Source of the DNA: a virus | Taxonomy: Duplodnaviria; Caudoviricetes | Length of the DNA: 64,000 nt | Virus record (IMG/VR): IMGVR_UViG_3300021958_000023 | Location: 1 to 64,000 of that record | Reading direction: 5' to 3' (one strand) | Part shown: piece after piece, positions 7,336 through 50,027 of the stretch | Layout of the letters: the number at the start of each line of letters is the position of its first letter | Numbering within the stretch: the stretch's first letter is position 1 | Notes under the pieces: model-generated | The model's database searches: none | What the model saw: only the letters and a program-made list of their open reading frames with translations | What the model was told of the DNA's origin: nothing | Made by a program: the position numbers and the translations under genes

Positions 7336-9854
7336 TGGCAACAATTAAGTGGAAACGAGCAAACAAAACTTCTCATGCTAACAACTATTTGGGAGCAAAT
7401 GGCGAAGTTGTGATTGACATGGAACAGAACCGCATATTTTTATATGACGGCTCAAATGCCTATGTCAGTAACACTTTTGTGAGCGCTCCTGGTACAACAT
7501 ACACACCTCCTGTAGTGGAAGAAGAAATAACAGTTGCTTGGTCTCTATCTACTCTTACAGGCACAGAATCTACTGGTGTATGGGCCTCTCCTCCTGTTGG
7601 TTATGCTATATCCGTTTCTCCAGATGGTAAAAACTACTTCACAATTGATGGTGGTAACGATTCAGTATTTCAATGGAAATCAGATGTAGCTAATGATTTA
7701 GCTAATGCGCGTATATATACACGGCATTTTGTTGAATATGATGGTGTGGGTATGTCTCCTGTAGATTTAGACTTTAGGTCAGACGGAAAAGCTATGTATC
7801 TGCTTGACAATACCTTAGATTCGATTTTTGAATTTCCACTAGCAGAACCATGGGATCTTAAAACTATCAAATGGATAAACCAAGCTAATGCTAGAAGTGT
7901 AGTTTCAGAGTTAACAGTTCCCTCAGCTCTTCATGTAAGAAGCAACAGCTATTTTTATGTTTTAGGATCTACAACCGACACAGTTTATGAGTATTCATGG
8001 GTTGCAGGAAACGCAGCCAGTGCTACTGCAACTGGTGCTAGTTTTTATATTGGAGGTCAAGAAACTGCTCCACAAGGCCTATCATTCAAACCAGATGGCA
8101 GTGAGATGTATGTTACTGGAACAACAGGAGATGATATCAATAGATATATAATGACCACTCCTTGGGATATTGCTAATGCTTCGTTCGATACAGAATATGC
8201 TTTAGGAACAACTACTGGACAAAATCCAGGCGGTTTATATATAACCAACAATCATCTCTATACTGCTAGTAGCACGCAAGATAATGTGCAGTTATGGACA
8301 ATGAGTTCAGAGTGGGATTTATCTACAAGAAGCCATGTAGCTAATCTTTCAACTTCGTATGATATGGGTGGTACTGGAGACAGTTCTGACATCTATGGAT
8401 TAAGATTCTCTTCAGATGGGCTCAATCTTTACTTAGTAGACCTTAGAAGAGTAGCGCAGTGGAAACTTGATGTTCCTTGGGTTTTAAGTAGTGCCTCAAA
8501 CAAACCGTATGCAGTGTTAAACACTGAAGGAGGTATGGGCTTTTATAATTTATTTGGCCTAGCCTTCAAATATGATGGAACTAAAATGTACCCAATGAGA
8601 GATCCTCAACTAGGAGAATATAATTTAAGCACTGCTTGGGATCTTTCGACTGCTACTTATGTAGGAGTTGGAAACATCAACTCAACAGGATCTCCTTATG
8701 ATGTTGAATGGAGCTATAACGGTAATTATCTCTATCTTGTAACTAGCACTACAGTCTATCAATATGATGTATATTCAGCTGTTGGAGATAGTGGAAGATG
8801 GAGTGTTTCTGCATTGGGTAGTACCGTTGTTACAACAGTCACTGCTGGATCTTGGAAAACTATACGAGTAAGCGATGATGGTAATTTATCTTATTGGACG
8901 CAAACAAACGGAACTATAGATGTCTATGAACTTTCAACTCCTTATGATTTGTCATCAACACGCACATTAAAAGCATCTATCGGCACAGGCTCTGGATCAG
9001 GTTATGGGCATGGCATACTTGTAGACGGCGGAAGTAAAGTAGTATGGGGACAAGGTCCAGCAAGCATACTGAGATCTGCTAACTTAAGAGTAGCAAATGC
9101 AGCCTATGATAGTTCTACAATCACATTTAACGAACTAGACGCTTCTTCTATCTCTACCTCATGGAGAGATATAGTAGTTAAAGATGATGGAACTCGTATG
9201 TGGGGAGTAGAAGTCTCAGGAGATACAGTTCAACAATGGAATCTTTCTGAAGCCTATAATGTGGCATCAGCTACTGCAAATGGTAGTTTTTATGTTGGTT
9301 CACAAGAACTATTACCAAATGGTATTTGTTGGTCTGCTAATGGAACAATATTTTACATAACAGGAGGCAATGATACAGTCTACAAATACGATACTACTGT
9401 TGCTTGGGATATTAATTTTGCCTCTTATACTAGTGATTCTAAAGTGTTAGGAGGCGATATATATAGTTTTGTTATTACTCCAGACGGTTTATCTATGTAT
9501 GCAGGGACAAATTCTGTTATGCAAAAATGGGTAATGGATACACCACATGACATCATCAATGCAACACAGGTTTGGAGCGATGATCCAGCAGATTTTTTAA
9601 ATAACAGAGCTTATAATCTACAATATAATAGTGATGGCACTAAACTGTGGTTAATGGACTACCAAAAACATTCCATCCGCGAGCTTAAATTGGCTGTTCC
9701 TTATGATTTAGACTATATGACTATAGACGAAGATTATGTATGGCAGTTTGATACTGCAAATGCTGTAATAGGTGCTTGGGTAAGTGAAAGTGGTAATGTA
9801 GTTTTTGGAATAGATCTCAGTAGTAATAAAATCACAGGATTTAGAGGCAACTAA
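7335..9854 (+). CDS. Tail fibre/adhesin with beta-propeller repeats (F..DG..MY / LST.WDLS)
   Basis: ATG overlaps the upstream TAA (TAATG); Mtd_N-like start MATIKWKRAN..GANGEVVID; many WD(I/L)S repeats. Confidence 0.7.
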   Translation: MATIKWKRANKTSHANNYLGANGEVVIDMEQNRIFLYDGSNAYVSNTFVSAPGTTYTPPVVEEEITVAWSLSTLTGTESTGVWASPPVGYAISVSPDGKNYFTIDGGNDSVFQWKSDVANDLANARIYTRHFVEYDGVGMSPVDLDFRSDGKAMYLLDNTLDSIFEFPLAEPWDLKTIKWINQANARSVVSELTVPSALHVRSNSYFYVLGSTTDTVYEYSWVAGNAASATATGASFYIGGQETAPQGLSFKPDGSEMYVTGTTGDDINRYIMTTPWDIANASFDTEYALGTTTGQNPGGLYITNNHLYTASSTQDNVQLWTMSSEWDLSTRSHVANLSTSYDMGGTGDSSDIYGLRFSSDGLNLYLVDLRRVAQWKLDVPWVLSSASNKPYAVLNTEGGMGFYNLFGLAFKYDGTKMYPMRDPQLGEYNLSTAWDLSTATYVGVGNINSTGSPYDVEWSYNGNYLYLVTSTTVYQYDVYSAVGDSGRWSVSALGSTVVTTVTAGSWKTIRVSDDGNLSYWTQTNGTIDVYELSTPYDLSSTRTLKASIGTGSGSGYGHGILVDGGSKVVWGQGPASILRSANLRVANAAYDSSTITFNELDASSISTSWRDIVVKDDGTRMWGVEVSGDTVQQWNLSEAYNVASATANGSFYVGSQELLPNGICWSANGTIFYITGGNDTVYKYDTTVAWDINFASYTSDSKVLGGDIYSFVITPDGLSMYAGTNSVMQKWVMDTPHDIINATQVWSDDPADFLNNRAYNLQYNSDGTKLWLMDYQKHSIRELKLAVPYDLDYMTIDEDYVWQFDTANAVIGAWVSESGNVVFGIDLSSNKITGFRGN

Positions 9855-37542: not shown

Positions 37543-38082
37543 CTATATTTTTGTTTCTGCTCTCATACCTGGAACTCCATACTGCCCTCTGAGTAATATA
37601 TTAAAACTAATCGTTTTTCTTACCTTACTAGTTACATTTTGCTTAACAAAATGAGGTAACCAGCTAGGAAATATAATAAGTTTATTAGGTAATGCTTGAC
37701 TAAAAGGTAGTATATTATTGTAACGAGCATTTAACTGAAAACTAGACGCAGCAGGTCGGGGATCAATGAATATTGTAGGTTCTCCGTCTGTTATGTAATA
37801 TATACCACTAAATATAGAGTTAGGATGTACATGAATAGGGTGATCTTTTCCTAAGTCATTTACATTACACCACATTTCTGTAATATCTATTTCATATTTT
37901 GTTTCAACTTGTATGTCTTTTAGTATCTCTTCTACATAGCTTATTATTGTTTCCTGTAGTTTAGTATGAGAAACTGATGCCCCATCTTCTAAGTTAGCTG
38001 ACGAAATAAAATTAAAGTTTTTATCACTAAGAACGTGTTTCCACTCATAAACTATGGTAGGAAAAAGAATATTTTTTTCCAT
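37543..38082 (-). CDS. Putative 2OG-Fe(II) oxygenase (TIGR02466-like)
   Basis: FPT, HVHPNS.FSGIYY, IFPSWLPH.V, R.TISFN. Confidence 0.85.
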   Translation of the reverse strand: MEKNILFPTIVYEWKHVLSDKNFNFISSANLEDGASVSHTKLQETIISYVEEILKDIQVETKYEIDITEMWCNVNDLGKDHPIHVHPNSIFSGIYYITDGEPTIFIDPRPAASSFQLNARYNNILPFSQALPNKLIIFPSWLPHFVKQNVTSKVRKTISFNILLRGQYGVPGMRAETKI

Positions 38083-38083
38083 A

Positions 38084-38632
38084 CTAAACCCTACTTGCAG
38101 CAATCATATTAGGTATTTCTGAAGTAATTGCCATCTTTTTGTGTTTTTTATATTCTAGTTCCATCTTTTCTTGATCAGGTAAAAAAGGATTTAGAAACAC
38201 TTCACGAAGTTCTTTGTAAAACATTTTAAACTCTTTACCGTGTGGTTGAACATAGTGCATATGATGAAATCTTTTATGGTTGTATTGTGCTGCATGAGCC
38301 ATTTCATGAGTGATATGGTGTAATAGTTTATGCTCAAGATTATTAGTAAAGAAACCTCCAATTACAGGATCTTTATCAAATGAAGCATATTCATATACCC
38401 GACGAGGAGCGTCATAGTTTTCATCAGGAATTGCAACACTCATAGCGATTGAAATAACAGGTCCTCCGTTTCTCCATCCACCACGAGAACAACGACGCCT
38501 CTTTGACCAATCAAGTTTACACTCTACAAGTGCAAACTTTTCAGCACTAGAGAATCGAGAATACTTGTGAAACCACTTTTCAATATCATTCACATATTGA
38601 TCTGCTAGTTCATTCCAATGTCTACGATTCAT
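38084..38632 (-). CDS. SprT-like zinc metalloprotease
   Basis: HEMAHAAQ...PHG.EFK. Confidence 0.7.
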   Translation of the reverse strand: MNRRHWNELADQYVNDIEKWFHKYSRFSSAEKFALVECKLDWSKRRRCSRGGWRNGGPVISIAMSVAIPDENYDAPRRVYEYASFDKDPVIGGFFTNNLEHKLLHHITHEMAHAAQYNHKRFHHMHYVQPHGKEFKMFYKELREVFLNPFLPDQEKMELEYKKHKKMAITSEIPNMIAASRV

Positions 38633-38847
38633 TTACCTATATCCTTTACATTATTAGCTGTTACAATAGTATAAGCTCCTTTATTAAATGCAGGAGCAGT
38701 TGGAAATATCTTTTTATCTTCCCCACAGTCAAGACACGTTTTATAACCTAGTTTTCTTCTCTGATAAGAAAACTCCTCACCACAATCTATACAGTATACT
38801 GCAAAATTTTTCTTGCCAATATCTGGTTTTAGTGCTATTATAGTCAT
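38629..38847 (-). CDS. Zinc-ribbon phage protein
   Basis: CIDCG...CLDCG...NKGAY. Confidence 0.65.
   Translation of the reverse strand: MTIIALKPDIGKKNFAVYCIDCGEEFSYQRRKLGYKTCLDCGEDKKIFPTAPAFNKGAYTIVTANNVKDIGK
38813..38841 (+). promoter_or_regulatory. Promoter of the radical SAM operon (leaderless start)
   Basis: TTGCCA-N17-TATTAT ending 6 nt before ATG 38848. Confidence 0.65.
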
Positions 38848-39432
38848 ATGTATTTACCTAACCACTTACAAAATTTTTCTACACAGTTGTACGAAAGATA
38901 TAAAAATATAAACCCAGTTGAGATAATAACAAATTATCACTTCATAAGAGATGGAAGAGTTTTCTTCATTGAAAATGGTGAAGAGAATATGGTATTTCCT
39001 GACTCTTATAAAAATACTATATCAAAAATTAAAGCTCATAGCAAGAATACATTTAAAGTAGAAGGTTTTGAAAAGTTTGATGAATATCTTGCAACTGTGT
39101 GTGATAGTAAAACTAAAGATGAATATATAGACTGTCATTTGTATTGGGGTAAAGTGGGAAAATCTAGTTTTATAACCCATGTTGATCCTTACGATGTTGT
39201 AATAGTAATGATTTCTGGCACTAAAAAAATGGTGTTTCCTGATAATAATGAAGAACAAGTACTGAATCCAGGAGATACTGTATATATTCCAGGAAATAAA
39301 GCACACTATGCTAATAACGTAACAGAAAATATTTCTCTAAGTTTTGGTATTAGAAAGTACTATAAATACATAGATTTAAAACTCCAATCATTGCAGATGG
39401 CAGCTGATGCATCATATAACAGTATATCTTAA
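38848..39432 (+). CDS. Cupin/JmjC-like (Cupin_4) hydroxylase
   Basis: H.Y....SSF.THVDPYDV....SGTK...L.PGD.VYIP....H. Confidence 0.8.
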   Translation: MYLPNHLQNFSTQLYERYKNINPVEIITNYHFIRDGRVFFIENGEENMVFPDSYKNTISKIKAHSKNTFKVEGFEKFDEYLATVCDSKTKDEYIDCHLYWGKVGKSSFITHVDPYDVVIVMISGTKKMVFPDNNEEQVLNPGDTVYIPGNKAHYANNVTENISLSFGIRKYYKYIDLKLQSLQMAADASYNSIS

Positions 39433-40459
39433 AACTACAGAAACTTGTCAGTTAAATTGTAAACATTGTTTTACCAACGGGATAAACGGTAGAAAAATAT
39501 ATTTTAACCCTGTTAAGACAGTAGAGTGGATAAATAAATTAAAAACAGCTTATCAAAACAACTCTATACATTTTGAGTTTCACGGTGGAGAACCGTTTTT
39601 AGCCCCAGTTTCGGATATGAAATATGTTGTTGAAAATACAAAACAACTGTGGAACAACGCAAGTTATGGAATGACAAGTAATCTAACTCTTAATCTGGAC
39701 GAAGAAAAAACACAATTTATATTGAAAGATTTAAATGGTATAATAGGCACTTCGTGGGATAAAAGTATCAGATTTACTAACATAAAACAAAAAGAGTTAT
39801 GGGAAAATAATGTAAAATATTTAAAGTCTTTAGGTGTTTATATAACACTATTTGTAAGTGTTACTAAGGAACTTTGCAATACTGATCCTGAAACTATTAT
39901 AGAATATTTTAATAGTTTAGGAGTAGATGAAGTAGATTTTGAAAGACTAACCAATCACGGAAATGCAAAACTACATCCTGAAATTTTTCCGACTAATAAA
40001 GAACAAGATACTTGGTTTTTAAACTTATACAAGTGTAAAACAAAAAGAGAGTGGAAAGATAGTTTTATAGACTCAATAGTAAAAACAAGACTAGCAGGTT
40101 CTCAAACAGCTACTTTTTGCAGAGATTGTGAACAAAAATTATTTACTGTAAATGCAGACGGAACAATTAGTGGATGTCCTAATGCAGCTCCAGAAGAGGT
40201 TTATGGTAATATTGAACAAGACATTTGGGATTTACTTTGGAATCCAAAAAGAAAATATATAATAGCTTGTGAAGCAGCTAGAGATGAAAGATGTTATAGC
40301 TGTGAAGTATTTGATTTATGTGGGAGTGGGTGTCATCAGCTAGACTGGGATGAAACTCATTGCCCCTCTCCTAAAAGTTTATTTAAGCTATTAAAACAAA
40401 CACCTATAAAAGAAATAAAAGAAGGAGCGTATTATGCCAATTCAAAACACTGGGGATGA
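39407..40459 (+). CDS. Radical SAM/SPASM maturase 1
   Basis: CQLNCKHC, FHGGEP, C..C...GCP, C..C.....C...C. Confidence 0.92.
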   Translation: MHHITVYLKTTETCQLNCKHCFTNGINGRKIYFNPVKTVEWINKLKTAYQNNSIHFEFHGGEPFLAPVSDMKYVVENTKQLWNNASYGMTSNLTLNLDEEKTQFILKDLNGIIGTSWDKSIRFTNIKQKELWENNVKYLKSLGVYITLFVSVTKELCNTDPETIIEYFNSLGVDEVDFERLTNHGNAKLHPEIFPTNKEQDTWFLNLYKCKTKREWKDSFIDSIVKTRLAGSQTATFCRDCEQKLFTVNADGTISGCPNAAPEEVYGNIEQDIWDLLWNPKRKYIIACEAARDERCYSCEVFDLCGSGCHQLDWDETHCPSPKSLFKLLKQTPIKEIKEGAYYANSKHWG

Positions 40460-41036
40460 AATTAGTAAAGCAGCAGTTTTACAAAGATTTAATGAAGTCA
40501 TGCGTGACAATATTAATCCTGTTATTGATGTAGGTTCTGGAACACCTTTTACCACTGGAACATACAGGGAGTTGACAAATACAGGGGATGGAGGTATTCC
40601 TATTAATCATGTAGGAGCGCCTACAGTATCTCCTGCTACAACCGGGGGTCTAACAGACACTATTATAGACGCTGCAGGATTAGCCAATTATTTAAGAACT
40701 CTTACTAGAAATTATAGCCAAGTAAGAAAACTAAATTGGAGACTGAGATTTAATAAAACAGGATATCCTAGTGGTAATGGTAATCTGGTTTTAGAACAAA
40801 CAACTACTGACTACATTCATCTAAATGCTGAAACATATAAACAAACAGTTACAGATAATGCTACAACCTATAATATTGAAGAAGGCGATCTAATTGATGC
40901 ATCTGACTTTGAAAGCTATATAGCAGATTTATACTCACAGTGGAGTACTTTAAAAGAAAATACAGTAACAATCTATGTTGATACTTGTCATGCAAGTTGT
41001 CATTCAAACTGTCACGGTTCTAGGGGAAGAAGATAA
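40434..41036 (+). CDS. Candidate modification substrate, virion-like protein with C-terminal (CHxx)3 tail
   Basis: Ends TCHASCHSNCHGSRGRR; AAGGAG RBS; lies among radical SAM genes. Confidence 0.7.
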   Translation: MPIQNTGDEISKAAVLQRFNEVMRDNINPVIDVGSGTPFTTGTYRELTNTGDGGIPINHVGAPTVSPATTGGLTDTIIDAAGLANYLRTLTRNYSQVRKLNWRLRFNKTGYPSGNGNLVLEQTTTDYIHLNAETYKQTVTDNATTYNIEEGDLIDASDFESYIADLYSQWSTLKENTVTIYVDTCHASCHSNCHGSRGRR

Positions 41037-41734
41037 TGAAAGTAATTAAGACTAAGGCACCAATAGATGTTGAATATTTACAAGAATATTTTTCATCTGA
41101 AGAAGAAATAATGTTTGAGTTAATGTATTATGATAGTGATATAAAAGGAAGAACTTTTTTTAACTATGTAGCAAATCTAGACATTAAGTTCAAACTGAAT
41201 TTTTATGAAACCACACAAGAAGAAAGGTATGAGTTATTAGATCTTTACCTTAATTCTAACTCAATAATTTCCTGTAAAGAACTTGAATTGGCATTAACGT
41301 ATTTAGTACTTAAATATAATAACTGTAATGTAGATGACTTATACTCTTTTTCAATTCTTAGTCCGGAGTATGCTGAAAAATTTATAACAGAAAAAATGAA
41401 TAAACTGATGACTGTAACAGAATTTTTAGAATCTTTACCTATTACGACTCTCTCTTTTGTATCCTCTTTAAAAGAGTTTGTAAATCAAGAATTGAAAAAT
41501 TATGATGTAGTAGAAGATACAGATATAATAGGTAAAAATATAATAAATCTGATTAATAATCCTTTTATATTTCAACTGTATGAAACTAGTGGAAGTAGAA
41601 AAAGATATTTTAAGTATTACTCTGAAGAGTATATTTATGATGAAAAAAATCTATACGGCTGGATGACCGACAACGACGTACCCCTCTTAGTTTTTGTATC
41701 AGGAATAGCAGCCGGTGTTCAACCTAGTAAATAA
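41036..41734 (+). CDS. Hypothetical protein (radical SAM operon)
   Basis: TAATG coupling to the upstream gene. Confidence 0.7.
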   Translation: MKVIKTKAPIDVEYLQEYFSSEEEIMFELMYYDSDIKGRTFFNYVANLDIKFKLNFYETTQEERYELLDLYLNSNSIISCKELELALTYLVLKYNNCNVDDLYSFSILSPEYAEKFITEKMNKLMTVTEFLESLPITTLSFVSSLKEFVNQELKNYDVVEDTDIIGKNIINLINNPFIFQLYETSGSRKRYFKYYSEEYIYDEKNLYGWMTDNDVPLLVFVSGIAAGVQPSK

Positions 41735-42851
41735 TGTATATTTAGAATATAATTTTTGTTATACCTCTGAAATACCTAAACTATTAGTAGGGTATGAAGA
41801 GCCTTTGCCAAACACTTGGAATTATTTCAAAGACGCTGATAGTTTATTTGAAAGTAATACTTTAAAAAATATAGATAAAAGTACAGAAATAGTAGTTTTA
41901 GCAAACGAAGATGCTTATAACAAAATATTAATTACATATTTAAAATCAATCCTACCAAACTGCATAGAGCAATCTGCGTATCATTTTTATAAACTTCTTT
42001 TACAAAAACATATCTATTTACACGGAAAATCATGTTTAGCACATGATGACGGATCTACTAATCTAAAATCTCCTTGGAACTCATTAACATTATTATCGTT
42101 AAAGGAATTTAGTAGTATATATAAAACTTGTAGTAAACACTTACTAGATGATTTCTATACAAAAGGAGCTTGTTTAGAACTACACTTAGCTAGTTATTTA
42201 GCAAATACTAAATATAACCATAAAGATATATTATATAAAAAACTATATAATATAGTTGCTGATACAGTATTAAACGAATTAACTTATTGGAAAATGAATG
42301 TAATGTGTCAGTTATTTGAGTTAGGGGATTTAGTTGATAGCATAGAGTATGGCTCTCATTTGTATGAAAATGCAGTTTATGAAGATTTAAAACTACCAAA
42401 AGAATACGATTGGTTAATGGATGGAAATATAAAAGCCTACCCTGACCTAAAGTATGTTAAAGAAAACTATGATCTAAAAACTCTATTTAGACTTTATAGA
42501 AAATCTGTAATGAAGTATGGTCACAATGGATTTTATAATAGTGAAGTTTTAATGGAAAAGTTCATTGAAGGTAACTTAGGATTAAGAGACATAATAAATA
42601 TCGATATTAACACAATTTATGCAGGTGGAAATATTGGAGAATATCAATATCAAGATAGAACTACTCACTACTTATTAAGATATTTCTATCTCTTAGCAAC
42701 AGAAAAAAGATACGATAAACTATCTGAGTATTCTTTAGAAACTACTGACAAAGTATTTAAACCTTTTATAAATGAATATAAAAGAAATAAAAAAATTCCG
42801 AAAGAATGGAATTTAACAGACCACCACAGTTTTAGAGAAGGCTATGTATAA
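41715..42851 (+). CDS. Hypothetical protein (radical SAM operon)
   Basis: 378-aa ORF overlapping its neighbours. Confidence 0.7.
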   Translation: MFNLVNNVYLEYNFCYTSEIPKLLVGYEEPLPNTWNYFKDADSLFESNTLKNIDKSTEIVVLANEDAYNKILITYLKSILPNCIEQSAYHFYKLLLQKHIYLHGKSCLAHDDGSTNLKSPWNSLTLLSLKEFSSIYKTCSKHLLDDFYTKGACLELHLASYLANTKYNHKDILYKKLYNIVADTVLNELTYWKMNVMCQLFELGDLVDSIEYGSHLYENAVYEDLKLPKEYDWLMDGNIKAYPDLKYVKENYDLKTLFRLYRKSVMKYGHNGFYNSEVLMEKFIEGNLGLRDIINIDINTIYAGGNIGEYQYQDRTTHYLLRYFYLLATEKRYDKLSEYSLETTDKVFKPFINEYKRNKKIPKEWNLTDHHSFREGYV

Positions 42852-43833
42852 CACAGTCATAGATAAAAAAGCGTCCACTCTGGGAGAGGTTATTGTAACA
42901 CTGTTTGAACACTGTAATCTTGCGTGTAGTTTTTGTTCTCAAAATCATAATTCATTTGAGGGTGTGGAATCCATCCCAGAAAAATACTTTGCGATAAAAA
43001 GCGTCTATGAAAACTTACGCTCACAAAATAAAGAACAATTTTCCTTTCATTTTATGGGCGGAGAGATTTTGAGTGATTCAGTTTCAAATCAAATTTTGAA
43101 TAAAATTGAAGATTTAATTCTTAGATGTCAACAATCATTTGAAAACAGTGAATTTCTAATAACTTCTAATATGATATGGAGTGATAGAGATAGGGTAAGA
43201 CAAATGCTAGATAGGCTAGAAATTAAACTAGCAGTCAGCTATGATCCTGCGGGTCGCTTTAATACTACTCAACTAGAACAGTTTATGTCTAATGTTGAGT
43301 ATTTTAAAGATTATATCACCACAGTAAATATAATTCTAACAGCTCCTAATATTTATAAATTTTTAGGTAATGATATAACAGGTTTTGAGTATCTATATGA
43401 TAACTTTAATATATATTTTGATTACTATACTCCTGAAAAAAACGCTAGTATAAACTGTCCTACAGATGTAGAGTTATTAGAAATATTCAAATATTTGTCT
43501 AGTAATTATCCTAAAGTAGCACCTATAAACAAGTATTTATCTGGAGATACTAGGAAAAATTTAACCTGTCAAAGAACAAAGGTAATAGCTGCTAATGGAG
43601 AAATAGGTCACTGTAATTTATTAGTTGGAGGCAACTATAGAGCATTAGCACATGATAGTAGAGATAAGATGGAAGCTAAATGGATAGAAGGATTTAATTG
43701 CTTAATGTGTGATCATTTTACTAGATGTGGGTTGGGGTGTTTTCAAGAAAACCATATTTTACCTGAAAAAAGTACTATGGAGCATTGTTGGATTAAAGAC
43801 TATTGGGAATGGTTAGATGGAACTTATAATTAA
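42844..43833 (+). CDS. Radical SAM/SPASM-type enzyme 2
   Basis: CNLACSFC, FMGGE, C-terminal CLMCDHFTRCGLGC. Confidence 0.9.
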   Translation: MYNTVIDKKASTLGEVIVTLFEHCNLACSFCSQNHNSFEGVESIPEKYFAIKSVYENLRSQNKEQFSFHFMGGEILSDSVSNQILNKIEDLILRCQQSFENSEFLITSNMIWSDRDRVRQMLDRLEIKLAVSYDPAGRFNTTQLEQFMSNVEYFKDYITTVNIILTAPNIYKFLGNDITGFEYLYDNFNIYFDYYTPEKNASINCPTDVELLEIFKYLSSNYPKVAPINKYLSGDTRKNLTCQRTKVIAANGEIGHCNLLVGGNYRALAHDSRDKMEAKWIEGFNCLMCDHFTRCGLGCFQENHILPEKSTMEHCWIKDYWEWLDGTYN

Positions 43834-44890
43834 ACCAACAGAACGTTGTAACTTTAAATGTACCTTTTGCTCTAGTACAAAAATTGCTGATTCTAAATCT
43901 GTAGAATTAGAGCATGAAAAAATATTTGCTTTTTTAAGAAGATTTCCTGATACTAATACTATTATTGTAAACGGTGGTGACCCTCTAATGATGACACCTG
44001 ATTACTATTGGAAAATAATAGATTACTTAAATGAACACGGCTTGAATACTACTATATCTTTAACGACTAATCTATGGCCGTTCTATAAAAATCCGACTAA
44101 ATGGATTGATCTTTTGAGTCATCCTAGAGTAGGGGTTTGTACCTCTTTTCAATATGGAGGAGGTAGATTAAAAGGAGATTTTTCAGAGTTTACTGAAGAA
44201 GACTTTTGGAATGTTTCAGATAAAATGTTAGAACTCGTAGGTTACCGTCCTGATTTTATCTCAGTAATAACAAAAGAAAATGAAGATCAAGCTATTGACA
44301 ATGTAAGATTAGCTAAAAAAATGGGAGTAGTGTGTAAACTAAACTATGCTGTTGCAAGCGGTCCAGAAATTAGATTTCTTAATGGAATTAAGATGGGATT
44401 AGAAAACTATACCTATCTACTTGCAGATATATATGAAATTTATCTTAAAATTTATAAGCTAGGACTTGCTGATTGGGAATATAACACTACTCAACTACTA
44501 AAAAGATTTTCTTCTAATACTACTTGTCCACAAAACAGACGTTGTGATGAAAATATTAGAAACCTAAATCCAGGAGGTGACTACTATTCTTGCGGAGCAT
44601 TTGGAGATGACAAAGAGTATGAAATAGATTTTGATAAAGAGATGAATCAAGATAAAGTAGAAACTCCTTTACAAAAGTCTATAGAACTACTATCTTTAAA
44701 ACAATCTTGTTTTACTTGTCCTATGTTTAAGATTTGTAATGGATGTAAAAAAACTACTAGTGATTTGAAAAGATTAAATTTAGTAGAAACACACTGTAAA
44801 AAAATGAAGAAACTAGCGCCTGACATAATAGAAATATGTAATTTAAAAACAAAAGTAACGGAGTATATAGATGAGTCAATATACACATAG
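43817..44890 (+). CDS. Radical SAM/SPASM-type enzyme 3
   Basis: IIKPTERCNFKCTFC, NGGDP, CP....C...YSC, CFTCPMFKICNGC. Confidence 0.92.
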   Translation: MELIIKPTERCNFKCTFCSSTKIADSKSVELEHEKIFAFLRRFPDTNTIIVNGGDPLMMTPDYYWKIIDYLNEHGLNTTISLTTNLWPFYKNPTKWIDLLSHPRVGVCTSFQYGGGRLKGDFSEFTEEDFWNVSDKMLELVGYRPDFISVITKENEDQAIDNVRLAKKMGVVCKLNYAVASGPEIRFLNGIKMGLENYTYLLADIYEIYLKIYKLGLADWEYNTTQLLKRFSSNTTCPQNRRCDENIRNLNPGGDYYSCGAFGDDKEYEIDFDKEMNQDKVETPLQKSIELLSLKQSCFTCPMFKICNGCKKTTSDLKRLNLVETHCKKMKKLAPDIIEICNLKTKVTEYIDESIYT

Positions 44891-45668
44891 AAAACTATGG
44901 CCTACCCCTATTTTATTAGGAAGTATTGATAAAGAATTAGCCAAAGATTTATTTAATTATATACTGAATAAGTATCATAATCCTGATGAAAAAACAGAAG
45001 TATTTAATCTGTTTTCTATCGGTGAGCCTCTTTTAGATAATCTATATAAAAACCATATTGTTCCTGCTACAAAAGAATATATTAAAAATAATTTATTTCA
45101 GTCTAACCATTATGAAATAAATTCTTATGCGTGGGCTCACGTATTGCCACAAGGACAAAATGTAGGTATTCATAATCATCCTAATAATCATATAAGCGGT
45201 ACTATATGGTTAAACGATCATGATAGTCATCTTTTAATGGTCGATCCAAAAGGTAATTCTAATATGATGGATTTTGGATATCTAGATTTAGAAATGTTAA
45301 CTAAAATGGGTATGACTGTTGGGAATGATGAAATTAGACATAACCATACTTCTAGATATAACGAGTTTGGAAGACAGATGAATAATAGCACACTAGACTT
45401 CACAGGACTTTTTGGTGATTATGTTGATACATTTGATAAACCAACTAGATCAGTAAATCCAACTAACATCACTATTAAACCAGAGCTTGGTAAGTTTGTA
45501 TTATTTCCATCTTGGGTATGGCACGAAGTAGAACCAAACCAATCTAAAATGCCTAGAATTAGTATTTCTTGGGATACTAGAATTACTCCAAAGATAAAAA
45601 AAGAGCATAATATTCATCATGAACAAGACATTAGAATATTAGGAGATGTTCTTGATATACAGAACTAA
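44871..45668 (+). CDS. Putative 2OG-Fe(II) oxygenase (TIGR02466-like, with insertion)
   Basis: WPTP, HNHPNN.ISG, LFPSWVWHEV, RISISW. Confidence 0.85.
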   Translation: MSQYTHRKLWPTPILLGSIDKELAKDLFNYILNKYHNPDEKTEVFNLFSIGEPLLDNLYKNHIVPATKEYIKNNLFQSNHYEINSYAWAHVLPQGQNVGIHNHPNNHISGTIWLNDHDSHLLMVDPKGNSNMMDFGYLDLEMLTKMGMTVGNDEIRHNHTSRYNEFGRQMNNSTLDFTGLFGDYVDTFDKPTRSVNPTNITIKPELGKFVLFPSWVWHEVEPNQSKMPRISISWDTRITPKIKKEHNIHHEQDIRILGDVLDIQN

Positions 45669-46071
45669 GAAAGCTGATATTAATGATTTACAAATATTAG
45701 TAGCTTTATCATATAATATGATAAAAGATGAGCGGTATGAACGAGATGATTTAGTTTATATTATAAAAAATGATATAATTGAAATACTATATTTCAATAA
45801 TATAGCTATTGGATACTATACCGTAATTAATCATGAGAAGGGTAAGTACTTAGAAACTATATTAATTGATAAAAAATATCAAGGAACAGAAGCAGTATAT
45901 CAATTATGTAATAAAGCAGTTAACCCTATTAATGGAAATCCTTTATGGGGTTTAAGTAGATATAAACGAGTTGATATATTATTGAAAAAATATGGTTTTG
46001 AACCAAAAGAATATGAAACAATTAAAGGAAGAAAGTACAGATGGTGGATAAACCGTTTTCAGTCTCAATAA
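45646..46071 (+). CDS. GNAT-like acetyltransferase
   Basis: IGYY...YLETILIDKKYQG...LLKKYGF. Confidence 0.6.
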   Translation: MFLIYRTKKADINDLQILVALSYNMIKDERYERDDLVYIIKNDIIEILYFNNIAIGYYTVINHEKGKYLETILIDKKYQGTEAVYQLCNKAVNPINGNPLWGLSRYKRVDILLKKYGFEPKEYETIKGRKYRWWINRFQSQ

Positions 46072-46958
46072 ACCCTAGTTACTTTTGTAATTTTAGATGT
46101 GATTTTTGTTATCTAACTCCTGAACAACTAGGAGACCAGAAAAAAATTGATCTTAAAAAATTAGATAAATTACTTTCTGAAGTGCCAAAAATAGATCATA
46201 TAGATTTATACGGCGGAGAAATAGGAGCATTAAAAAGGAGTTATTATGAAGACCTTATCAAAACAATACGCAATTGGTATTCTGACACTATCAACATTAA
46301 TACTAATTTTTCTATGCTTGACGACAGATTCTTCGAGGATGGAATCTCTCTTTCCGTCTCATATGATTTTTCAGCAAGAGAAAAATCTAATCTAGTATAT
46401 AATAATATGTTAATGAGCCCTGTGCCTCTCTCGGTTCTTATCTTAGCTTCAGCTGAAGTAGTAAAAATGGATGTAGACTATATGATTAAACAATTAAATA
46501 TGTGTAAATCAGTAAAGTCAGTTGAAATAAAGCCATATTCTATAAATCAAGCAAATGCTCATTTAGTAACTCATAGAGAGTTTGAGTTATTTGTGTCTCA
46601 GTGGATTGATAGTCCTATAGAAAAACGGTTTGAGTTTCAAAACTTGAGAAGAATTGAACGAAGTGTCAAGAAGGAGTATAGTGCTTGGTCTGATGATCAT
46701 ATCTATATTACTCCTAATGGAAAGTTTGCTGTATTAGAGTTTGATCAAAACGATAGAGAATATTTTATGGAATTACCGAGTTACAACGCATTTGAACAAT
46801 GGGCGTGGAGAGAGAAAAGAACACTATCTACAATATGTCAAAACTGTAGTTGGGTAGGACATTGCTTAACAGAACACTATAGACAAGTAAAAGATTTAAA
46901 ACATAGTTGTAATGGTTATATAAATCTTTTAACAAAGTACCAACATGATTTTATATAA
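46041..46958 (+). CDS. Radical SAM enzyme 4
   Basis: CNFRCDFC, YGGE, C-terminal CQNC.....C..H...SC. Confidence 0.9.
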   Translation: MVDKPFSVSINPSYFCNFRCDFCYLTPEQLGDQKKIDLKKLDKLLSEVPKIDHIDLYGGEIGALKRSYYEDLIKTIRNWYSDTININTNFSMLDDRFFEDGISLSVSYDFSAREKSNLVYNNMLMSPVPLSVLILASAEVVKMDVDYMIKQLNMCKSVKSVEIKPYSINQANAHLVTHREFELFVSQWIDSPIEKRFEFQNLRRIERSVKKEYSAWSDDHIYITPNGKFAVLEFDQNDREYFMELPSYNAFEQWAWREKRTLSTICQNCSWVGHCLTEHYRQVKDLKHSCNGYINLLTKYQHDFI

Positions 46959-47454
46959 AGACGTTTTAGAAAATGGTTTTGCTTTCAGTGAAATTAATCT
47001 AAATCCTATTGCTAAAGATTTAGAATCTTTAGAGTTTTATGAAAACGAAGATAGAAAACCAGGAGTTGAAGTAAGCTGGTCTACTTTTGGTATGCCTAAA
47101 AAAGTTAATAACTACTTAATACATAGTTTAAAAAACGTATGTGATGATTACATAGGTTCCTTAATAGATAAAATAGACACATTTGAAGCGTATAAAACAG
47201 AAGTAAAAGAATATACACAGCTTCACAGCGATTCTTCTTTTGGAGGGCTGATACAAATTATGGTCTACTATATTAAGGGAGATTTAAAGGGTAGAAACTT
47301 TTTATATGGAAAAGTAAGCAGAATAGATAGTATAGTTCCTTATACAGGACTAGTTATAGTATCTGATCAACTAAATAAAGAGTGGTTACATGGCACTAAC
47401 CCACTAATAAATCCGTGTTTTAATTTATGTATAACAGCGATAACTCCAAGATGA
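46945..47454 (+). CDS. 2OG-Fe(II) oxygenase-like protein
   Basis: LHSD...Q.MVY...G..F...WLHG (HxD...H triad). Confidence 0.65.
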   Translation: MILYKDVLENGFAFSEINLNPIAKDLESLEFYENEDRKPGVEVSWSTFGMPKKVNNYLIHSLKNVCDDYIGSLIDKIDTFEAYKTEVKEYTQLHSDSSFGGLIQIMVYYIKGDLKGRNFLYGKVSRIDSIVPYTGLVIVSDQLNKEWLHGTNPLINPCFNLCITAITPR

Positions 47455-48134
47455 ATAAAAAAGAATTTTATAAGAAAGAACATTTTTCTAAAAAGAACTG
47501 GTTACATGACAATGGTAGAGTAAACGCTACAGTATCAGGAAATAACTGGGTAGGAGTATCTATATCTCCTTATATGAAAGATTTTAAGTCTCAAGTAGAT
47601 CCAGGAATTTGGCCGTTGGTTGAGATACTAACTAAAAAAGGATATTTAACTTGTTCATCTTGTGAAGGGCATGATTGGATGGAAGAATCTTTTGTAGTAG
47701 TGTGTTTTGGGTCTAGAGATTCAAGAGATCAATTTGCTAAACAAGTAGTAAAAGCACACATACCTCAATACCGAGTATTCTATCAAGAATCACAGACTAA
47801 TATAAATCTTTATGATCCATTCAATAATTATCATGAATTAATGGATGATCCTACAATGGATGAAACTCAGAATTGGTTTAAAGTAAAAGATAAACTATAT
47901 TTTACAAAAGTTGAAGACGATATACCAGAAGAAATTATAGAAAAAGAAGCAGAAAACTGGAATCACTGTTTTGGTAGAAAATATAAACGATGGTACTATT
48001 GTCGACTTCTAATTGGGGGTGCAGTACTAAACGGTAAGACTCCCACAACACTATGTGTACACTGGACTCGTTATTTTTGGATAAAAAAATTAGCTAGTTT
48101 TATTGAAAGAAAGGTATCTAATGGCTTTGACTGA
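47427..48134 (+). CDS. Hypothetical protein with TYW3-like SSCxG motif
   Basis: VDPGIWPLVEIL..KGYLTCSSCEGH. Confidence 0.5.
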   Translation: MYNSDNSKMNKKEFYKKEHFSKKNWLHDNGRVNATVSGNNWVGVSISPYMKDFKSQVDPGIWPLVEILTKKGYLTCSSCEGHDWMEESFVVVCFGSRDSRDQFAKQVVKAHIPQYRVFYQESQTNINLYDPFNNYHELMDDPTMDETQNWFKVKDKLYFTKVEDDIPEEIIEKEAENWNHCFGRKYKRWYYCRLLIGGAVLNGKTPTTLCVHWTRYFWIKKLASFIERKVSNGFD

Positions 48135-48771
48135 GAAATTTAGAGAAATACAATATGATTCTGATAATCTTATAGAGTATTCTTACCATGCAAACGATAC
48201 ATCTAAAGAAGTATTAGAACTAAAAAATAAACTTTACACAATTTTTAAAGAAGAAAGTGCTGCTGACTTAGCTTTTAAACACGATATGATCAGCTATCAT
48301 TCTAAAAATGGAACTACTTATGAAGAAGATGCTATTGTAGTTGTTTATTCTGAAAAATGTCCTTTTTATTTAAGAGAAGAGTTTAATCTAAAAGATTTTA
48401 ACTCTTTAGACTTTTATGCAATAAAATATTTCTTAAATAGTAAAAAAAGAGTATTAAAAACGTATGATGCAGATATGTATAATTATGAAATACCCCAACT
48501 CCCTCCTAAATCAGCTATCGGTAATCAATTTGGTGTTGGAAGAACACACGGAATTGAAAAAGAGTATAGAGATGTTTACTTTTTTAACTCTAATGATATG
48601 ATGGTAGGGTATTTTTGGGGAGATTGGATTCCTAAAATAGAAGAACCATATAAAAATCCCGCAACTAAATGTTACGGGATTACTTACGAAGAAGGAATCA
48701 AAGATGTTTTAAAGTTAAAACGTTACCTGTTTCCTTTTCATTATGAAATGTCTGATCTAACTTTATTATGA
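48121..48771 (+). CDS. Hypothetical protein (last gene of the operon)
   Basis: ATG overlaps the upstream gene; converges on the gene ending at 48766. Confidence 0.65.
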   Translation: MALTEKFREIQYDSDNLIEYSYHANDTSKEVLELKNKLYTIFKEESAADLAFKHDMISYHSKNGTTYEEDAIVVVYSEKCPFYLREEFNLKDFNSLDFYAIKYFLNSKKRVLKTYDADMYNYEIPQLPPKSAIGNQFGVGRTHGIEKEYRDVYFFNSNDMMVGYFWGDWIPKIEEPYKNPATKCYGITYEEGIKDVLKLKRYLFPFHYEMSDLTLL

Positions 48772-49332
48772 TTTTCTCTCAATAGTAAAAGAAACAGGGG
48801 GTGGATTAGGAGCAATATTAAAACTAATAATAGCTTTTGGTATATCTTTATCTATATGTCTATTACTAGTATGTCCTATAAAAGATGGAAATATTATCAC
48901 ATCTCCTTCGTCCACTGTTGGAGTTACAGAATCTATATTACCATCATAAGGAGTTCCAAAAGGGCTATAAAAACTAGTACCCCCACTAGGAGGAACATCA
49001 ATATACAGAATAGCACTATAGCCTAGAGCTCCATGATTATGATAAGGATGAGATCCTCCATAGGCATAGTGTTGAAACCACATCTCACTAATTATAAGTT
49101 TTTCTAACCCTACCTGTTCTTTCCATTCAAATAGTTCTTTTTCTATAGTTTGAAACACAAATTTTGTGTATTGCTTTTTACTAAGGTTTTCCCAAAAGTC
49201 TGTAGCTATACCTGTATTTTCATCTACACCTATTGCAGGTAGTAACGTAAGCAATTCTTCTTTTTTATTTTTCCAATCAGAAACTCTAAATCTCCAATAA
49301 GGAACTCTAAATAAGTCTCTTTGTTGTATCAT
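48766..49332 (-). CDS. Putative 2OG-Fe(II) oxygenase (TIGR02466-like)
   Basis: MWFQ, HNHG..GYSAILY, IFPSFIGH, IISFN. Confidence 0.85.
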   Translation of the reverse strand: MIQQRDLFRVPYWRFRVSDWKNKKEELLTLLPAIGVDENTGIATDFWENLSKKQYTKFVFQTIEKELFEWKEQVGLEKLIISEMWFQHYAYGGSHPYHNHGALGYSAILYIDVPPSGGTSFYSPFGTPYDGNIDSVTPTVDEGDVIIFPSFIGHTSNRHIDKDIPKAIISFNIAPNPPPVSFTIERKS

Positions 49333-50027
49333 ATATCGCCTATCATTGGAAAAATTTCTGCAATTACTTTTGCACAAGCGTGTGCAATTTCCATGTGTTC
49401 TAATTGTGTTCCATTAGCTCCACGTAGATCGATATAGTGAATCCATGAACGTAAAGTACCGTTCATATATAAACGTGTTTTAGTCAATCCTTCTGGTAAC
49501 ACAACACGAGCCTGTTCTTTAGCAATACCGTTTTCTATAGCCCAATTGTATGCGTTACTAGCTGCTAGAATAACTTGATCTTGTTTAGACAACCATTGTT
49601 GTTGTAAAGCAGCTTGTTCTTTGCTTTCTAACTCACTGTCTTCTAAAGAGATACTATTTTGTCTATTCTTTTTATCTTGTAATCTCGCATCTCTACGAGT
49701 AAAAATTTCTCCTAAACTTTTAGGATTAGCGTAACGCTGACTAAACTCTTGAAATGAAAAAGAACGATGACGCACAATTTGATGTGCGATATCACGAGTA
49801 GTTTCAATTTCTAAACACACATTTACCATCTCAAAAGGAGACCAATGTTTATGTTGCATTAAATAGTATAGTAGCTTTTCAGAAGTTTCTTCATTGATTT
49901 GATTTCCTGGATTAGAAACTCTTGCACAATAGGCAACTAGTCCTTTTATATCTCTTACACTACTGTTAGTATCAAATAGTTCTTTAGATACTGTACTATA
50001 AGAAACTAATTTAACTTTCGTATCCAT
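49329..50027 (-). CDS. thyX: FAD-dependent thymidylate synthase
   Basis: HWSPFE, RHRSFSFQEFSQRY, AKEQAR.VLP, GTLRSW.HY. Confidence 0.96.
   Translation of the reverse strand: MDTKVKLVSYSTVSKELFDTNSSVRDIKGLVAYCARVSNPGNQINEETSEKLLYYLMQHKHWSPFEMVNVCLEIETTRDIAHQIVRHRSFSFQEFSQRYANPKSLGEIFTRRDARLQDKKNRQNSISLEDSELESKEQAALQQQWLSKQDQVILAASNAYNWAIENGIAKEQARVVLPEGLTKTRLYMNGTLRSWIHYIDLRGANGTQLEHMEIAHACAKVIAEIFPMIGDI

Follow-up and report, generated by a model that had tools for sequence, protein, structure and literature searches.

Radical S-adenosylmethionine (radical SAM)/SPASM maturation is known for small RiPPs and for a few cellular proteins: sulfatases, QhpC, and, since 2026, the defense effector HxsA. 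In the bacterial HXS antiphage system (HxsA effector with HxsB, HxsC, and HxsD; PMC13128918), the substrate is a full-size protein of 214 amino acids rather than a short peptide, which carries tandem His-x-Ser units rich in basic residues and is matured by two radical SAM enzymes plus a small noncatalytic partner. The modification sits on an S-H-R-S-S unit, and the effector blocks phage DNA entry. Triceptides are RiPPs with three-residue cyclophanes, in which SPASM radical SAM enzymes cross-link an aromatic residue to an acceptor two positions later; the C2 of His can be the donor, as in the products of HaaB and HtkB (PMC11499958). In ranthipeptides, PapB links Cys of PapA to Asp/Glu or to a C-terminal carboxylate (PMC12373016), and the CXXX-repeat radical SAM target family (TIGR04115 maturase, PF27846 target) has Cys at a four-residue period next to a SPASM maturase. 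SPASM enzymes also act on folded proteins, as anSME does on sulfatases and QhpD does on the QhpC subunit. Metal-binding His repeats at phage fiber and spike tips, such as HxH in T4 gp37, are short repeats of metal-ligand residues in virion proteins that need no maturation enzymes, are internal to trimeric fibers, and lack Cys, Ser, and a basic end. No report of radical SAM maturation of a virus particle protein was found.

The locus analyzed here lies in a window of 64,000 nucleotides (positions 1 to 64,000 of IMG/VR record IMGVR_UViG_3300021958_000023, a phage record of 173.5 kb in total). The gene at 40434-41036 (+) encodes a 200-amino-acid protein (P0001) whose only three Cys residues (185, 189, and 193) lie within the last 16 residues as C-H-A-S/C-H-S-N/C-H-G-S, followed by R-G-R-R at the exact C terminus. 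The tail (residues 185 to 200) is coded by 40986-41033 (+). The three units use different codons, so this is not slippage, and the (TGY CAY N6)x3 pattern occurs once in the whole phage record and never in the reversed control. A Shine-Dalgarno sequence, AAGGAG, is present at 40422-40427 (+), 6 nucleotides before the ATG. Its predicted pairing with the anti-Shine-Dalgarno sequence is -9.2 kcal/mol, compared to -6.4 to +1.0 kcal/mol for the other 12 genes of the operon. Thus, what the preliminary description had observed, a Cys-His tail of four-residue period and the clearest Shine-Dalgarno site in the operon, is confirmed. Its interpretation, that the protein merges the Cxxx-repeat and His-Xaa-Ser precursor signatures with a virion-like, fiber-like body and is an abundant substrate of the neighboring enzymes, is only partly supported.

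Membership in the described families was not supported. The three H-x-S/N triads followed by R-x-R-R resemble the tandem units of HxsA, and HXS is the closest analog, but P0001 and its homologs from Atu_ph07, RSL2, and P0070 (a further homolog) had no NCBIfam hit, including to the HxsA model (TIGR03979), even at an E value of ≤10. The first radical SAM enzyme of the operon (rSAM1) scored 35.2 bits against HxsB (cutoff, 370), the third (rSAM3) scored 33.3 bits against HxsC (cutoff, 267.9), and no HxsD hit was obtained among the first ten operon proteins (38848-46958), the three distal genes being outside this NCBIfam scan. In addition, each phage unit begins with an invariant Cys, the motif is strictly C terminal, no Pfam peptidoglycan-binding domain was detected, the N terminus does not read like a signal peptide (judged by eye), and the module has four to seven radical SAM enzymes plus cupin and 2OG oxygenases. 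It is encoded by phages, with a product inferred to enter the particle, whereas HXS is a bacterial defense against phages. The aromatic-x-acceptor motif of triceptides is present three times, as H-x-S/N, but matches of rSAM1 to cyclophane synthases were weak (YhhB, 45 bits against a cutoff of 445; FxsB, 31 against 370; AmcB, 29.5 against 425; XyeB, 22 against 450), the substrate would be a 200-amino-acid protein with a predicted fold rather than a leader-core peptide, and the invariant Cys and basic end have no counterpart there. PapB was the best named match of rSAM1, at 60.6 bits against a cutoff of 340, but there is no Asp or Glu in the last 16 residues. Scores against TIGR04115 were 25.8 bits (rSAM1) and 19 bits (rSAM2) against a cutoff of 350, and the phage tail has only three units, each with an invariant His. 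P0001 had no Pfam hit at an E value of ≤10, in a copy of Pfam that may not include PF27846, and although the nearest named ESM-Atlas cluster was the Cxxx-repeat target family, the similarity of 0.82 is below the level that is meaningful. anSME was the second-best match of rSAM1 and rSAM3 (56.1 and 45.3 bits against the TIGR03942 cutoff of 349), and the QhpD family also matched (36 against 453). The last tail unit, C-H-G-S-R, recalls the sulfatase C/S-x-P/A-x-R motif, but its third position is G/S/N in the family rather than P/A, and no sulfatase or dehydrogenase domain is present.

P0001 is the founding member of a large, unnamed family that was found only in phages. A word-indexed search returned 76 homologs, and a profile search returned 786 clusters at 50% identity. 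No Pfam or NCBIfam model or solved fold describes the family; only phrog_35144 (function unknown) matched, and only over the tail. A full-text search for the tail motif returned only noise, and no paper describing the family or the function of the module was found. Members were found in marine T4-like contigs, the jumbo phages Atu_ph07 and pPa_SNUABM_DT01, RSL2-like phages, and a few binned metagenome contigs; cultured carriers are Atu_ph07, RSL2, RSF1, FLC6, S13, and pPa_SNUABM_DT01. Megablast of the operon against cultured phages gave no match.

Lack of tail conservation, or frequent occurrence of homologs without radical SAM genes, had been named in advance as grounds for rejecting the interpretation, and neither was found. 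The motif CH..CH..CH.SR.RR was present at the C terminus in 198 of 224 homologs, and the others are near variants, which keep the H-x-S/N triads, or are cut. Ser or Asn at +2 from His was found in 196, 194, and 198 of the 198 canonical tails for the three units. Bodies are only about 30% identical, yet a profile from which the tail had been removed still recovered only tailed proteins (37 of 37 new hits). It is possible that the tail is instead an unmodified metal site (Zn, Fe, or an Fe-S cluster bound by three Cys and three His, possibly shared between subunits) of a virion protein, and that the neighboring enzymes act on something else, such as another virion protein, a sugar, or DNA bases. 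Cys and His at a four-residue period would line up on one face of a helix, and phage radical SAM enzymes with nonprotein substrates exist, for example in thymidine hypermodification (PMC8989533). However, a plain metal site does not explain why Ser/Asn and the R-x-R-R end are as fixed as Cys and His, or why two-Cys variants keep three H-x-S/N triads. Thus, this alternative seems unlikely.

The gene lies in a conserved module. The first gene, 38848-39432 (+), encodes a cupin/JmjC-type oxygenase (PF08007; E value, 2.4e-11), centered about 1.27 kb upstream of the tailed gene. rSAM1 (39407-40459, +), directly upstream and overlapping the tailed gene by 26 nucleotides, has CxxxCxxC at residue 14 and a SPASM CxxCx5Cx3C motif (TIGR04085; E value, 5.4e-9). 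It is a median of 49% identical across loci whose tailed-protein bodies are 30% identical. The start of g232 (41036-41734, +; phrog_20767), a partner protein of unknown fold, overlaps the stop of the tailed gene (TAATG). The g378-family protein (41715-42851, +) had no Pfam or PHROG match but occurs at a fixed offset. These are followed by rSAM2 (42844-43833, +), a radical SAM/SPASM enzyme; rSAM3 (43817-44890, +), with PF04055 (E value, 2.8e-10), a SPASM domain, and a median identity of 60% across loci; a 2OG-Fe(II) oxygenase (44871-45668, +; PF13759; E value, 4.4e-19), whose family is present in 60 loci; a 141-amino-acid protein (45646-46071, +) with no family match, shared by BLAST only with the close relatives (loci L004-L007); and rSAM4 (46041-46958, +), a radical SAM enzyme with a partial C-terminal Cys motif and a median identity of 54% across loci. 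Three distal genes (46945-48771, +; 169, 235, and 222 amino acids) had no Pfam or PHROG match and are only patchily conserved, the first being shared only with L004-L007 and the other two being found in roughly a dozen loci each. The CxxxCxxC motifs of rSAM1 to rSAM3 lie at residues 11 to 24, and their SPASM motifs are the hallmark of peptide- and protein-modifying radical SAM enzymes. The genome has exactly four radical SAM genes, all in this operon, and exactly one such tail.

Homologs are almost never found away from radical SAM genes. In 88 loci, the order is cupin, rSAM1/SPASM, tailed gene, g232, g378 family, and then more radical SAM enzymes, and clustering gave the core as radical SAM genes in 88, the tailed gene in 88, g232 in 84, the g378 family in 74, and the cupin in 73 of the 88 loci. 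Of 87 tailed open reading frames with upstream DNA, 74 have a radical SAM gene directly upstream, and 77 of 86 have g232 directly downstream. The exceptions are tandem second copies, split forms, rearrangements inside the same module, and one contig in which a divergent CxxxCxxC protein follows. The translational coupling of the tailed gene between rSAM1 and g232 in nearly every locus across unrelated phage lineages is also not explained by a plain metal site, and the SPASM type of the enzymes is a further point against it. Another possibility is that P0001 is an accessory of the enzymes rather than their substrate, such as an Fe-S cluster carrier or scaffold or an electron donor that supplies the four or more cluster-rich radical SAM enzymes. 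Three Cys plus His at a C terminus resemble the ligand sets of Fe-S scaffold and carrier proteins, and marine T4-like phage genomes rich in radical SAM genes also carry Fe-S assembly genes (PMC5332604). However, no similarity to any Fe-S carrier family was detected in the Pfam and NCBIfam searches, the fixed Ser/Asn and R-x-R-R would be left unexplained, and some lineages have tandem duplicated copies or copies fused to Gly-rich display domains. This is the least likely of the alternatives considered.

The fiber-like impression of the body was not borne out by the single-chain model or by fold searches. Thr (13.5%), Asn (8.5%), and Gly (8.5%) are prominent, but the repeated segments claimed earlier are only partly real: residues from about 67 to 100 and 142 to 175 resemble each other (z score, 4.2; 1 of 500 shuffles), while the N-terminal segment does not (z score, 0.95). 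The AlphaFold2 model (pLDDT, 73; pTM, 0.72), of a single chain, is a compact alpha/beta domain with a disordered loop at residues 41 to 54 and a flexible tail at residues 192 to 200; the disordered tail is a further point against an unmodified metal site. Foldseek against the PDB returned nothing at an E value of ≤0.001, the best VIA-wide Z score was 3.8, and BFVD returned only uncharacterized family members, so the fold has no known relative that would place it in the particle. g232 has a confident model (pLDDT, 88.6) but no PDB match by sequence or fold. Its best hit had a Z score of 5.4 over 55 residues, a few radical SAM barrels aligned to its first 58 residues at Z scores of 3 to 4, which is not significant, and an ESM-Atlas search found nothing. 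The tail of P0001 also contains two overlapping C-x3-C-H strings, which recall variant heme c attachment sites. This reading was rejected because the N terminus, judged by eye, does not read like a signal peptide, the neighbors are cytoplasmic radical SAM enzymes, and no Ccm genes were seen among the proteins scanned.

Evidence on localization comes from published virion proteomics of the cultured jumbo phage Atu_ph07 (PMC6102473, Table S5). The Atu_ph07 ortholog, AUZ94952.1, is gp170, as determined by gene count between the anchors gp125, gp132, gp140, gp143, and gp180 and by the identical mass of 31.89 kDa. It was detected in virions with 8 unique peptides and 35% coverage, in a single phage whose particles were only PEG purified and in a table that also lists some nonstructural proteins (RNR, RecA-like, and SSB), so copurification of an abundant soluble protein is not excluded. 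gp170 was most abundant in the top gel band (band 1), although other 30- to 32-kDa proteins peaked in bands 7 and 8 and the 117-kDa sheath peaked in band 2. The band 1 peak could reflect a noncovalent, SDS-resistant oligomer, and under the metal-site alternative a stable oligomer would explain it. The radical SAM, cupin, and g232 orthologs (gp165, gp168, gp169, gp171, and gp172) are not listed, which argues against an accessory role for the tailed protein. The virion-like character suggested in the preliminary description is supported by these mass spectrometry data on one ortholog rather than by any fold match. A virion table for the jumbo phage phiRP31 lists 32 proteins, but phiRP31 was not among the phages matched in our searches and no tailed homolog could be identified in it, so it gives neither support nor contradiction.

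It was also considered that the protein might be a precursor with a very large leader, from which the 16-residue tail is modified, cut off, and released as a small RiPP or a peptide-derived cofactor or metallophore, in the manner of PqqA or MftA, with the body discarded. An invariant C-terminal core next to a SPASM enzyme and several oxidizing enzymes recalls the PQQ and mycofactocin pathways, and the strong Shine-Dalgarno site fits a stoichiometric precursor. However, no peptidase belongs to the conserved module; the SprT-like gene at 38084-38632 is shared only with five loci. The body, a predicted folded domain, is kept in hundreds of lineages, accepts inserted or fused Gly-rich domains, and is found in the Atu_ph07 virion preparation. 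Furthermore, the conservation of the "leader" is far below that of the "core," the reverse of typical RiPP precursors. This explanation is doubtful.

These results suggest, with moderate confidence, that P0001 is a virion-associated protein in which a poorly conserved body of about 184 residues carries a flexible tail, (Cys-His-x-Ser/Asn)x3-Arg-x-Arg-Arg, that is the dedicated substrate of the maturation module inherited with it. This reading is also favored by the Shine-Dalgarno site, the strongest in the operon, and by the precedent of HxsA, a full-size protein with HxS repeats matured by two radical SAM enzymes. The invariance of the tail, the synteny, the phage-only distribution, and the virion detection of the ortholog were established by the analysis, whereas the modification itself, which has not been observed, its chemistry, and its role in the particle are inferred, as is every step of the following mechanism. 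Late in infection, the abundant protein would be made in the cytoplasm, and the SPASM-type enzymes (rSAM1 above all, then rSAM2 to rSAM4) would abstract hydrogen atoms in the tail and install covalent cross-links. All matches of the enzymes to characterized maturases were far below the curated cutoffs, so the reaction type can only be proposed. The most likely products would be three-residue His-to-Ser/Asn C-C cyclophanes on the three H-x-S/N triads, as in triceptides and HxsA, and/or Cys thioethers; an anSME-like conversion of Cys to formylglycine on the last unit is also possible. The cupin/JmjC and 2OG oxygenases would add hydroxylations, and g232 and the g378-family protein would act as noncatalytic partners that present the substrate. 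The matured protein would then enter the particle while the enzymes stay behind, and the rigid, basic, reduction-resistant C-terminal knot would mediate a very stable, possibly covalent or metal-bridged, attachment or contact.

A more far-reaching reading, which remains tentative, is that this would be the first case of a virus structural protein matured by radical SAM chemistry, in which a module carried by phages of several unrelated lineages builds a covalently cross-linked, basic, possibly metal-binding knot, in effect a RiPP embedded in a protein, at the C terminus of a particle protein. The knot would give the particle an SDS-resistant, perhaps covalent, joint or an envelope- or DNA-contacting tip, and would be the phage-side counterpart of HxsA. 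In this view, about 10 kb of a 173-kb genome, and up to seven radical SAM genes in some jumbo phages, would be devoted to one 16-residue tail that is conserved across hundreds of phage lineages from oceans, soil, sewage, and plant-pathogen phages. If confirmed, this would add a new kind of virion chemistry and a new enzyme-substrate set for cross-linking chemistry on folded proteins, and would explain the radical SAM clusters that several phage genome papers only list (PMC5332604, PMC8066314, PMC11898562, PMC5468394).

A T4-type late promoter, TATAAATA, is present at 39361, but the motif occurs at chance frequency in the window (10 found, 9.2 expected) and was not considered further. A search with the Gp23 capsid Pfam model gave no signal, in the controls either, and was uninformative. 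Genes flanking the module are not conserved. In support of the virion reading, the module commonly sits between structural genes: a giant DUF4815 protein in 40 loci, the gp176 family in 56 loci (gp176 is itself a virion protein of Atu_ph07), and an LtfC-like domain protein.

The ORF at 40434-41036 on the plus strand was translated into 200 residues without an internal stop. The protein has three cysteines, at residues 185, 189, and 193, which are arranged as C-H-A-S, C-H-S-N, and C-H-G-S, followed by R-G-R-R and the stop codon. The three units use different codons. The degenerate DNA pattern for (Cys-His-x-x)x3 occurred once in the 173.5-kb phage record that holds the stretch studied here and never in the reversed control. 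The sequence AAGGAG at 40422-40427 is predicted to pair with the anti-Shine-Dalgarno sequence at -9.2 kcal/mol, compared to -6.4 to +1.0 for the other twelve genes of the operon, in agreement with the preliminary description, in which this was considered the clearest ribosome-binding site of the operon. Thr, Asn, and Gly are enriched in the protein. However, of the repeated segments in the preliminary description, only residues ca. 67-100 and 142-175 were significantly alike (z 4.2), and the N-terminal segment was not. The observation of a C-terminal Cys-His tail was therefore confirmed, although the internal repeats are only partly real.

Thirteen overlapping plus-strand genes extend from 38848 to 48771. 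In order, they encode a cupin/JmjC protein; rSAM1, a radical SAM/SPASM enzyme; the tailed protein; g232 (41036-41734; phrog_20767, unknown function); a 378-aa protein of unknown function (41715-42851; referred to as the g378 family); rSAM2 and rSAM3, both of the SPASM type; a 2OG-Fe(II) oxygenase; a 141-aa protein of unknown function; rSAM4; and three further proteins of unknown function. The four radical SAM genes are the only ones in the genome. The annotated ATG of the cupin gene (38848) abuts the start of a 72-aa minus-strand ORF (junction at 38845-38850), with no intergenic base and no Shine-Dalgarno site. Cupins at other loci are 150 to 175 aa, and thus the true start may lie downstream. 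The structural genes of the phage are those of a T4-like myovirus, and the neighbors on the other strand include a tail fiber with an S74 chaperone domain and a cell wall hydrolase. Two further 2OG-Fe(II) oxygenases and a SprT-like metalloprotease also flank the operon on the opposite strand (37543-38632 and 48766-49377), but they are not conserved with the module in other lineages.

In order to evaluate whether the tail is conserved, homologues were collected with a word-indexed search, which found 76, and with a profile search of 1.84 billion representatives, which found 786 clusters at E<=0.001, of which 440 were at E<=1e-10. Of the 224 sequences collected at that point, 198 end exactly in CH..CH..CH.SR.RR. 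The other 26 are close variants with S to N or A at position -5, one extra residue before R-x-R-R, or only two Cys, or they are cut or frameshifted. The two-Cys variants keep H-x-S/N triads, three in two of them and two in a third, which points to His-x-Ser/Asn, and not only Cys, as a unit under selection. One alternative, that the tail is an unmodified metal site and that the neighboring enzymes act elsewhere, is considered unlikely. Because the first profile contained the tail, a second profile was built from bodies only (residues 1-183). This profile found 60 proteins, and all 37 that were new carry the tail. Bodies are about 30% identical to that of the protein studied here, and in the 22-sequence full-length alignment only two body positions (G61 and A80) are invariant besides the tail.

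In order to determine whether the gene travels with radical SAM genes, 80 IMG/VR loci, three cultured-phage loci, and six binned contigs were compared. Of 87 tailed ORFs with enough upstream DNA, 74 have a radical SAM gene directly upstream, and of 86 with enough downstream DNA, 77 have g232 directly downstream. The exceptions are explained. They include second copies of tandem pairs (loci L067, L068, and L071; 8631-10144), split forms with an inserted Gly-rich domain (L031, L034, L036, and L054), and rearrangements within the module (L028 and L035). At the remaining locus, the binned contig L090, two short copies (137 and 140 aa; 7830-8665) directly follow a fiber-like gene of at least 2,608 aa and precede a divergent CxxxCxxC protein. 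Thus, the two findings that had been named beforehand as able to refute the preliminary interpretation, a tail not conserved in homologues and homologues commonly found without radical SAM genes, were not obtained.

All-against-all clustering defined a core of radical SAM enzymes (88 of 88 loci), the tailed gene (88), g232 (84), the g378 family (74), the cupin (73), and 2OG oxygenases (60). Recurrent flanking genes encode a giant DUF4815 protein (40 loci), the gp176 family, relatives of the virion protein gp176 of Agrobacterium phage Atu_ph07 (56 loci), a B12-binding radical SAM enzyme (32 loci), and an LtfC-like domain protein (28 loci). The DUF4815 and gp176-family genes are illustrated by locus L012 (774-6899 and 7122-8516). 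The phage studied here has only a relative of the gp176 C-terminal domain, 70 kb away (114725-115087 of genome record G000). Other flanking genes are not conserved. rSAM1, rSAM3, and rSAM4 (49 to 60% identity) are much better conserved than the body of the putative substrate, g232, or the cupin (26 to 31%).

The family was found only in phages. A scan of 185,579 species genomes gave six loci, all on contigs of metagenome bins. Four of these show other genes of the module alongside the tailed gene, and one (L090) has only the divergent CxxxCxxC protein downstream. Cultured carriers belong to unrelated lineages: the Rak2-like Agrobacterium jumbo phage Atu_ph07 (and probably Sinorhizobium phage Phosso, in which only a g232 homologue was matched); Pseudomonas phage pPa_SNUABM_DT01; and the Chiangmaivirus group, comprising Ralstonia phages RSL2, RSF1, RsoM3USA, and the FLC4 phages and Burkholderia phages FLC6, FLC8, and S13. 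The genome papers for these phages list the cupin, radical SAM, and 2OG genes only as accessory genes or genes of unknown function, and a large review of jumbo phage genomes does not discuss them. The phiKZ-related Ralstonia phages phiRP12 and phiRP31 carry genes annotated as radical SAM, Fe-S oxidoreductase, MoaA, and MgoB (PMC5468394). These are probably the same module under misleading names, although no tailed protein could be identified in these phages.

Published proteomic data provided insight into whether the protein is in the particle. The orthologue in Atu_ph07 is AUZ94952.1, which was identified as gp170 by counting genes between the published anchors (gp125, gp132, gp140, gp143, and gp180). 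Its computed mass, 31.89 kDa, equals the value printed for gp170. Table S5 of PMC6102473 reports gp170 in virions with 8 unique peptides and 35% coverage, present in gel bands 1 to 9 and most abundant in band 1. In the same table, proteins of 30 to 32 kDa peak in bands 7 and 8, and the 117-kDa tail sheath peaks in band 2. Thus, this protein runs mostly as a species well above its own mass, which fits a covalent or SDS-resistant assembly. However, the stock was PEG purified, and a few nonstructural proteins are also listed. The orthologues of the radical SAM enzymes, the cupin, and g232 are absent from the table, whereas gp176 and gp177 upstream are present. Two further alternatives are that the protein is a large-leader precursor of a released peptide or cofactor, which seems unlikely, or that it is an Fe-S carrier or accessory of the enzymes, which seems less likely still. 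Each of these, like the unmodified metal site, fails to explain part of the conservation pattern or the virion detection, but none is excluded by the available data.

The AlphaFold2 model (pLDDT 73, pTM 0.72) predicts a compact alpha/beta domain, in which the tail leaves the last strand and is flexible. The loop at residues 41-54 is disordered. It lies in the stretch between the N-terminal helix and the rest of the domain, where relatives carry insertions. One form, a 453-aa protein (P0114), has a Gly_rich_2 domain fused in front of the whole family domain in one ORF. In the split form, found in four contigs from different samples (L031, 9004-10372; also L034, L036, and L054), a 308-aa ORF holds the N-terminal helix of the family plus an inserted PF21722 Gly_rich_2 domain, and after a stop and a frame change, a 140-aa ORF carries the rest of the body and the tail. 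This may be a true split gene or a programmed frameshift. No solved structure was found to resemble the model, and the only matches among viral models were uncharacterized relatives.

The simplest account of all the evidence, and the most likely, is that this is a virion protein whose tail is the substrate of the module. The tail is invariant and strictly terminal while the body drifts, the gene is translationally coupled to SPASM enzymes, the cassette moves as one unit between phage lineages, and the orthologue was detected in virions whereas the enzymes were not. The preliminary interpretation, a virion-like protein serving as an abundant substrate of radical SAM enzymes, is thus partly supported. 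The constancy of the tail, its linkage to the module, the restriction to phages, and the detection of the Atu_ph07 orthologue in virions come directly from the data, whereas modification of the tail, its chemistry, and its role in the particle are inferred. Several types of reaction are possible. The H-x-S/N triads fit the three-residue cyclophane logic of triceptides and of HxsA (PMC11499958, PMC13128918). The Cys could form thioethers; PapB is the best named match of rSAM1, and PapB can even use a C-terminal carboxylate (PMC12373016). The last unit recalls the sulfatase formylglycine motif. However, all enzyme matches are far below the curated cutoffs, and thus the system was not assigned to any of these families. 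No Pfam or NCBIfam model, solved structure, or paper was found for the family. In this view, the system works like the known radical SAM maturation of proteins but differs in motif, in enzyme complement, in being phage encoded, and in the destination of the product.

Other components of the module may bear on how the putative substrate is handled. Neither g232 (predicted structure, pLDDT 88.6) nor the g378 family has a detectable family, and no PDB relative was found for g232; as core members of the module, they are candidates for substrate-presenting partners. The B12-binding (class B) radical SAM enzyme of about 570 aa that is present in many versions of the module (L011, 7193-8920, and 31 other loci) is absent from the 64-kb stretch studied here; its presence suggests an extra methylation step in those lineages.
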